Origin: Candidatus Saccharimonadia bacterium
GTDB lineage: Bacteria > Patescibacteriota > SICC01
NCBI GenBank assembly: GCA_025449535.1
Contig: JANWJF010000001.1
Location: 741,136 to 805,135, forward strand
DNA length: 64,000 bases
Direction: 5' to 3'
Under the pieces are notes generated by a model. That model did not search any database. It worked only from the letters and a program-made list of their open reading frames with translations, and was not told the DNA's origin. The translations under genes were made by a program, and so were the position numbers. Below, in pieces: positions 29,066 through 29,356 of this stretch. Position 1 is the first letter of the stretch. Each line of letters begins with the position of its first letter.

Positions 29066-29206
29066 TTAGTAATGCTTGGCCTTGAGCAGTGGACGGAGGA
29101 CGAAGCCGGCAGCAATCACGAGGCCGGTAATCGCGCCCGCAAGCATCCGTTCGGCCAGCTGGGGCAGGCAGGACGGCGTGCCGTCCTCGTGGTGGTCGCG
29201 TCGCAT
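29066..29206 (-). CDS. small membrane peptide b (46 aa)
   Basis: RBS GGAGG overlapping the stop of peptide a; sequence MRRDHHEDGTPSCLPQLAERMLAGAITGLVIAAGFVLRPLLKAKHY. Confidence 0.45.
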   Translation of the reverse strand: MRRDHHEDGTPSCLPQLAERMLAGAITGLVIAAGFVLRPLLKAKHY

Positions 29207-29209
29207 GTC

Positions 29210-29356
29210 CTACCTCCGGTGGCTCTGCAGCCGGTTGGCGATTGCCAGCGGCACACCGACCGCCACGACGAGACCGGTGATGCCGAGCTGCAAGGCGCGC
29301 TCCGGCAAGCGAGCCCGGTACGGCGCTTGGAACGGCATGTAGGCGGGGTACGCCAT
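29210..29356 (-). CDS. small membrane peptide a (48 aa), paralog of peptide b
   Basis: RBS AGGAGG 4 nt upstream; MAYPAYMPFQAPYRARLPERALQLGITGLVVAVGVPLAIANRLQSHRR; shared motif AL/GxITGLV. Confidence 0.45.
   Translation of the reverse strand: MAYPAYMPFQAPYRARLPERALQLGITGLVVAVGVPLAIANRLQSHRR

Follow-up and report, generated by a model that had tools for sequence, protein, structure and literature searches.

A candidate lineage-specific operon for two paralogous membrane peptides in the hypervariable fusA–tuf gap of an uncultured patescibacterium

Introduction

Enterobacteria encode entericidins A and B (ecnAB), membrane peptides of about 41–48 residues whose genes are tandem paralogues; the two have been proposed to form an antidote/toxin pair. 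Class IIb bacteriocins such as lactococcin G and plantaricins EF and JK are two-peptide products of adjacent genes, made in equal amounts, that pack in the membrane through GxxxG-type contacts. AcrZ, KdpF, CydX and MgtS are single-helix proteins of 30–50 residues that bind a larger membrane protein and are usually encoded or co-regulated with that partner; none of these is known to come as a paralogous pair. In tandem type I toxins (Ldr/Fst, Ibs, ZorO), which gene callers often miss, every copy is an independent unit that has a promoter and an antisense sRNA to itself, and DNA similarity continues past the ORF (Fozo et al. 2010, PMC2887945). Searches for such toxins have used as criteria a length of less than 70 residues, at least 10 hydrophobic residues (I, V, L, F, C, M, A) in a stretch of 15, and a polar, charged or aromatic C terminus (PMC2887945).

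Here we describe two adjacent ORFs, p48 and p46, that lie between fusA and tuf of an uncultured patescibacterium and are predicted to encode small bitopic membrane peptides. Like ecnA and ecnB, they are two tandem paralogous small membrane-peptide genes. Unlike the entericidins, which are lipoproteins with a signal peptide and a lipobox cysteine, they have neither, as both lack an N-terminal hydrophobic signal and the only cysteine is C13 of p46, in the polar context PSCLP; nor is there sequence similarity to the entericidins. They resemble class IIb bacteriocins in their bicistronic arrangement and GxxxG-like motifs, but neither N terminus has a double-glycine leader (GG, GA or GS), and no immunity or ABC-transporter gene adjoins them; their neighbours are fusA, the gene for a 272-aa repeat protein, and tuf. 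With AcrZ, KdpF, CydX and MgtS they share the form of a single-helix small membrane protein; unlike those genes, they have no gene for a membrane-protein partner nearby.

Results

The 64-kb stretch of DNA that we analysed (the window) contains rpoB, rpoC, rpsL, rpsG, fusA, tuf, the S10 operon and a 16S rRNA gene; the same DNA is carried by JGI 3300035167 and GenBank GCA_036560925.1 (uncultured Patescibacteria). On its plus strand, fusA (25997–28099) and tuf (29578–30759) are separated by 1.5 kb that codes on the opposite strand, for a 272-aa ORF (28110–28928) convergent to fusA and for p48 and p46. The original prediction of two minus-strand ORFs of 48 and 46 aa in this gap is confirmed by p48 (29210..29356, ATG to TAG; MAYPAYMPFQAPYRARLPERALQLGITGLVVAVGVPLAIANRLQSHRR) and p46 (29066..29206, ATG to TAA; MRRDHHEDGTPSCLPQLAERMLAGAITGLVIAAGFVLRPLLKAKHY), which share one frame and are separated by TAG-GAC alone. 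Their reported absence from the ORF track applies to the track used at the time; in GenBank (PGAP) they are the hypothetical proteins HEY8109196.1 (p48) and HEY8109197.1 (p46), and IMG calls both as well. As gene calls, p48 and p46 are not new.

The genome has a GC content of about 65% and is full of spurious open frames, four of which (88–149 aa) overlap the p48/p46 spot, so that an open frame alone is no evidence here. GC at codon positions 1/2/3 is 0.71/0.46/0.85 in the joint p48 and p46 frame (0.69/0.49/0.90 for p48 and 0.72/0.45/0.79 for p46), compared with 0.63/0.36/0.93 for tuf, and the host-gene pattern is found in none of the other five frames. This periodicity begins at the ATG of p48 and ceases at the stop of p46. 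Upstream of the ATG, where an in-frame stop lies 32 codons away, the values are 0.62/0.55/0.62, and downstream of the p46 stop they are 0.50/0.46/0.44, in both cases without periodicity. A codon log-odds model trained on 24 confident genes of the window gave p48 0.355 and p46 0.401 bits per codon, scores as high as which were reached by only 0.5% of 207 spurious frames of 40–90 codons. The same scores fall in the lowest 4–5% of true-gene windows, which may reflect the difference between soluble, highly expressed training genes and hydrophobic peptides. Together with the ribosome-binding sites and the paralogy described below, these signatures make it very probable that p48 and p46 are real genes.

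Both ORFs follow Shine-Dalgarno sequences. AGGAGG (29367..29362) stands 5 nt ahead of the p48 ATG, and GGAGG (29217..29213), within the last codons of p48, stands 6 nt ahead of that of p46; the sites were thus predicted correctly, with spacings of 5 and 6 nt in place of the 4 nt given for them. The 3′ end of the window's 16S rRNA, ...GGATCACCTCCTTTCT (also written CACCTCCTTTCT), contains the anti-Shine-Dalgarno sequence CCUCC. GGAGG followed after 4–9 nt by ATG occurs at 23 sites in 128 kb (both strands of the window); two of these are p48 and p46, and most are recognisable gene starts, for example those of rpoC, rpsG and tuf. The p48 stop TAG (29212..29210) leaves a gap of 3 nt to the p46 start. 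It directly abuts the GGAGG of p46 and sits in the spacer between this site and the ATG; the close coupling proposed earlier is supported. Recoding or read-through of this TAG was dropped from consideration because TAG is also the stop of fusA, tuf, rpsG, rpsJ and rplB in the window. Eight independent assemblies are identical over 28100–29600, which rules out an assembly artefact for the p48 stop; without variation among them, within-species dN/dS on p48 and p46 is uninformative.

We found that p48 and p46 align in BLASTP with 12 identities in 22 positions (E 2e-5), a score reached in 0 of 3000 full shuffles and in 2 of 3000 shuffles that kept the hydrophobic block, in agreement with the paralogy originally proposed. 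The motif they share is longer than had been reported: L-x-E-R-x-L-x3-I-T-G-L-V-x-A-x-G-x2-L spans residues 17–37 of both in identical register, with L17, E19, R20, L22, I26-T27-G28-L29-V30, A32, G34 and L37 conserved. Over this 22-codon core, identity by codon position is 0.59/0.68/0.27 and nucleotide identity 0.43–0.52, 10 of the 12 identical residues are encoded by different codons, and DNA similarity does not reach beyond the core. With different codons, a pN of 0.36 and a pS that has reached saturation (0.78), the comparison points to an old tandem duplication under constraint at the protein level, in which the protein sequence was kept and the DNA sequence was not.

Each peptide has one hydrophobic stretch, at residues 22–40 (Kyte–Doolittle 19-residue means 2.07 and 1.82), consistent with the earlier single-helix reading. 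An N-tail of about 20 residues leads into a Gly/Ala/Val-rich helix of about 19 residues and a basic C-tail of 8–9 residues that has three K/R and no acidic residue in both peptides. The N-tail of p46 is acidic (+3/−4) and that of p48 carries +3/−1; by the positive-inside rule, p46 is likely to be N-out/C-in, and the topology of p48 is ambiguous. Small-xxx-small motifs are present as G28xxxA32 in both peptides, G24xxxG28 in p46 and G34xxxA38 in p48, and pairs such as G28/A32 are of the kind that mediates helix packing.

Loci of relatives were chosen via EF-G and via the 272-aa neighbour, giving nine relatives with EF-G 81–93% identical. Their fusA–tuf gaps contain one 249-aa gene (L009, EF-G 93% identical), a 1393-aa protein and a DUF5663 protein (L010), 424-aa and 135-aa proteins (L011), a SHOCT protein (P0157 contig), a homologue of the 272-aa gene followed by 42-, 192- and 150-aa genes (L012), a homologue of the 272-aa gene and a 189-aa gene (L014), a 134-aa protein (L033), an 80-aa two-TM protein on the minus strand (L034), and 120-aa and 166-aa proteins (L035). 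ORFs like p48 or p46 are present in 0 of the 9 gaps. Lack of preservation in related genomes had been put forward as a refutation, and on that criterion the pair would fail, but the criterion is uninformative here, since every gap holds different genes; absence from relatives says little about whether p48 and p46 are real because the gap is hypervariable.

In a blastn comparison of the gap with the relatives, two blocks are conserved in DNA, 28932–28993 (about 60 bp, 5′ of the 272-aa gene) and 29478–29576. Exactly between them lies the unique segment 28994–29477, a genome-specific minus-strand cassette that comprises the 5′ region of the mini-operon, p48, p46 and the hairpin and has flanks conserved in relatives. 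Flanking repeats that might mark a mobile insertion are only short and at chance level. The second block, the roughly 100 bp 5′ of tuf, is 77–80% identical in L009, L010, L012 and L014, with different DNA further upstream, and is presumably the promoter and leader of a tuf gene now uncoupled from fusA.

Linkage of the peptides with the 272-aa gene was rejected, as its homologues in L012, L014 and L015 have unrelated opposite-strand genes upstream. These homologues (43–57% identity) are likewise convergent to fusA, and the DNA just upstream of them is conserved. The 272-aa protein, which NCBI and IMG annotate in a shorter 253-aa form, has an atypical GC3 of 0.57 and matches nothing in Pfam, NCBIfam or PADLOC. 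Among 1.84 billion representatives, 270 are related to it, some of them giant proteins that hold the segment 10–17 times. Descent from the 189–192-aa gene of L012 and L014 was also rejected. The best tblastn match, of p48 (29210–29347) to residues 7–51 of the 189-aa protein of L014 (376–945), was 33% identical over 45 residues with E 0.028 in a 700-bp database and involved that one protein only; the L012 homologue does not align, and the alignment is probably due to chance. The 80-aa two-TM protein of L034 (7226–7468, minus strand), encoded on the tuf-divergent strand, matches a joined p48 and p46 in place, orientation and shape, with sequence similarity undetectable.

This lineage has a split str operon, with about 9 kb inserted between rpsG and fusA (16740–25996) and 1.5 kb between fusA and tuf (28100–29577) in the window. 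Both gaps hold different genes each time in the nine relatives (EF-G 81–93% identical); in the rpsG–fusA gap these include a reverse transcriptase and a NUDIX protein (L009), an AAA_15/AAA_21 ATPase (L011) and a MORC-like HATPase (L035). The gaps look like hot spots for accessory or defence genes within a normally invariant operon. Just 5′ of fusA, a low-GC island at 24594–25950 (45–50% against about 65% GC) encodes a DndB/DpdB-like protein (PADLOC DpdB, E 2.4e-19) and then a DUF2188 protein of 80 aa, for which PADLOC gives a match to its candidate system PDC-S16 (E 3.6e-20). The island was probably acquired recently, because its GC3 is 0.42–0.49 against about 0.9 in host genes.

Homologues were sought well beyond these loci. 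A profile of the pair matched only the two peptides among 5.8 billion proteins; back-translated patterns and tblastn found no homologue in GTDB genomes, JGI metagenomes or IMG/VR, and tblastn found none in GenBank phages. Searched singly, the peptides had no match in Pfam, NCBIfam, PADLOC or PHROGs. Neither tblastn nor the HMM detected a further p48/p46-like ORF in the whole window or the nine relatives' loci, and the pair HMM, run on 2338 open frames from the window and six relatives and also on three more relatives, recovered no other member. One HMM match, at L012 1820–1960 (E 0.019), was set aside as noise: it covers 16 residues of a frame that has no start codon and runs antisense to a real gene. 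By these searches, p48 and p46 are orphan genes of this one uncultured bacterium, with no wider family.

The original prediction that the pair belongs to one family with a cluster at 19.3–20.0 kb was not supported. Small TM ORFs near that cluster encode 31, 77, 36 and 61 aa (minus strand) and 83 aa (plus strand, at 18947), and GC3 in the small ORFs at 18.9–20.0 kb is coding-like (0.77–0.95). When p48, p46 and the five small TM ORFs at 18.9–20.0 kb were compared all against all by BLASTP, only the p48–p46 pair had E < 1, and the pair HMM again found nothing. On this evidence the clusters are alike in kind, both consisting of small bitopic peptides, but are not related by descent. In both the window (18138–20011) and L010 (4504–6148), a gene for a Bax1-I/YccA-like membrane protein, 71% identical between the two, is followed by four minus-strand single-TM ORFs, of 31/77/36/61 aa in the window and 76/84/45/51 aa in L010. 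The peptides of the window have no significant similarity to those of L010, so the arrangement appears to be conserved while the sequences evolve fast.

The 5′ region of the mini-operon (29363..29477, minus strand), which we presume to hold the promoter and 5′ UTR, is lineage-specific and has AGGAGG at its 3′ end. By blastn it is not conserved in relatives, unlike the adjacent 29478–29576. A promoter scan of this region found no site above threshold, and a weak promoter-like TTGGCT-17-TAAGCT was spotted in it by eye. A stem-loop (29022..29059, minus strand) begins 7 nt past the p46 stop, where a hairpin with a 10-bp stem had been predicted; it has a 10-bp outer and a 4-bp inner stem (−26 kcal/mol, z = −3.6), none of 200 shuffles folds as well, and it emerged from the repeat search as inverted repeat I1. 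Followed by UUUA alone, it lacks the U-tract of a canonical terminator and was not among the calls of the terminator scan; it is likely to be the 3′ end or a stabiliser of a bicistronic transcript. We regard p48 and p46 as a separate unit because of this hairpin and because relatives without the peptides conserve the DNA directly upstream of the 272-aa gene.

An RNA gene at the p48/p46 locus was considered and dropped: Rfam gave no match, whether at its gathering threshold or at E ≤ 10, and there was no excess folding over shuffles on either strand (z −0.5; plus strand z −0.55). A consensus scan of the plus strand over the ORFs found no promoter-like or terminator-like site, bearing in mind that an sRNA may lack consensus signals.

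One alternative, which would make the functional guess given below more specific, is that one peptide is toxic to membranes and its paralogue is the antidote, or that both resemble type I toxins, and that the pair is cargo of a variable island; we consider this unlikely. Such cargo would suit the hypervariable site, whose neighbouring gap holds the defence-like DpdB/DndB-like and PDC-S16/DUF2188 genes, and tandem paralogous toxin and antidote peptides have a precedent in entericidins A and B. Both peptides also fit the toxin-search criteria, down to tandem copies in one intergenic region (PMC2887945): 11 of 15 residues are hydrophobic in ITGLVVAVGVPLAIA of p48, which has the tail NRLQSHRR, and 11 of 15 in LAGAITGLVIAAGFV of p46, which has the tail RPLLKAKHY. 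As in the tandem type I toxins, each is shorter than 70 aa, with one TM helix and a polar or charged C-tail, and the two related copies are adjacent (PMC2887945). However, the type I toxins are separate units, and p48 and p46 are not: they lie 3 nt apart in one transcript, behind strong Shine-Dalgarno sequences, with 43–52% nucleotide identity and DNA similarity confined to the coding core. They have no sequence homology to these toxins and show no sRNA signal in the plus-strand scan or Rfam; the plus strand, without a promoter-like site or excess structure, gives no sign of an antisense RNA. Exposed, strong Shine-Dalgarno sequences and tight coupling are the opposite of translationally repressed type I mRNAs, and there is no PADLOC or PHROG match and no lipobox.

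A second alternative is that the locus is a non-functional relic of a larger TauE/SafE-type permease gene, broken by a nonsense mutation. The shared frame, interrupted by TAG-GAC alone, fits such an origin, as does a lead from the motif itself. A degenerate DNA pattern for ER-x-L-x3-ITGLV-x-A-x-G has 2 matches in the window and 0 in shuffles; in GTDB genomes and metagenomes it matched 17 loci, 13 of which are the C-terminal helix of Gemmatimonadota TauE/SafE. This helix (...RKIPERYLQITITGLVLAAG...) has 15 of 30 identities to p48, although 11 of these 15 are fixed by the search pattern. When the joined p48 and p46 sequence was compared with Pfam, TauE (PF01925) was the sole family found, at E 0.011 (residues 16–90 against profile positions 86–155), and among ten shuffled or reversed controls the lowest E was 0.043 and none matched TauE. 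Repeats inherited from a once-intact larger gene would also produce the kept residues and saturated synonymous sites of the core.

Against a relic, the Pfam score of 15.8 bits is about half of the gathering score of 32.6, below threshold, and the single peptides had no Pfam match at E ≤ 10. The likeness consists of (R/K)(L/I)P-E-R-x-L-x3-ITGLV-x-A-x-G, which resembles the last helix of Gemmatimonadota TauE, and amounts to one helix-length segment per peptide; TauE has about 250 aa and 8 TM helices, whereas p48 and p46 have one TM helix each. The mutual likeness of p48 and p46 has no counterpart in TauE, whose neighbouring helices 4 and 5 are not repeats. The locus also retains a host-like GC3 of 0.79–0.90 and two near-perfect Shine-Dalgarno–ATG pairs, GGAGG having a chance of about 0.7% each in a 6-position window (1.2 per kb). 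The codon periodicity is bounded precisely by the first ATG and the second stop, and the flanks contain no TauE-like remains and no coding periodicity. We therefore judge a broken permease gene distinctly improbable; descent of the helix itself from a TauE/SafE permease helix is suggestive, well short of proof.

A more elaborate scenario would make p48 and p46 a newborn, functional two-peptide membrane effector, in which a captured TauE-type helix gained a ribosome-binding site and was duplicated to become exchangeable hot-spot cargo that splits the str operon, otherwise ultra-conserved, in an episymbiotic patescibacterium; the pair might then serve as toxin and immunity peptide or as a modulator of a transporter of the host or of the bacterium itself. 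We regard this combination as very unlikely. That the ORFs are chance frames in GC-rich non-coding DNA is hardly credible: the GC content of about 65%, the four overlapping ORFs of 88–149 aa and the lack of homologues in proteins, genomes and metagenomes would allow it, but the frame-specific GC3, the codon-model scores, the two Shine-Dalgarno–ATG pairs and a paralogy that is significant at the amino-acid and not the DNA level argue against it.

Discussion

The reading that we favour, and hold to be probable, is that p48 and p46 form a small, self-contained operon of two genes, specific to this lineage, whose bitopic products are co-translated and pair in the membrane. A transcript of about 350–450 nt would run leftwards from the tuf-divergent spacer, carry p48 and p46, and end at the 29059–29022 hairpin. 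Ribosomes would load at AGGAGG, make p48 and stop at the TAG 3 nt before the p46 ATG, and p46 would start by re-initiation or from its own GGAGG; from such coupled or separate initiation, the two peptides would be expected in similar amounts. Because the helix lies near the C terminus, membrane insertion would be post-translational and of the YidC type, with the basic C-tail of p46 staying in the cytoplasm.

The conserved face, which includes the small-xxx-small pair G28/A32, suggests that p48 and p46 most likely form a hetero-oligomer in the cytoplasmic membrane. This packing face would comprise E19-R20 at the interface, I26-T27-G28-L29-V30, A32 and G34, with G28xxxA32 as its small-xxx-small motif. 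The pair could assist or modulate a membrane protein, or one peptide could perturb membranes while the other holds it in check; the helix may be an exaptation of one from a TauE/SafE-type permease.

Annotation covers small membrane proteins poorly, and the support for them seldom exceeds an open frame. For p48 and p46, several independent lines of coding evidence can be drawn from sequence alone although the peptides have no homologues, so that they offer a clean example of paired genes for lineage-specific small proteins in a genome of the candidate phyla radiation. In practical terms the gain is modest, as the bacterium is uncultured and GenBank already lists both genes as hypothetical proteins. 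Their context may be more useful than the peptides themselves: in this lineage the genes in the rpsG–fusA and fusA–tuf gaps, some of which are defence-like, differ in each of the genomes examined, and the gaps could be mined as accessory-gene hot spots of Patescibacteria.
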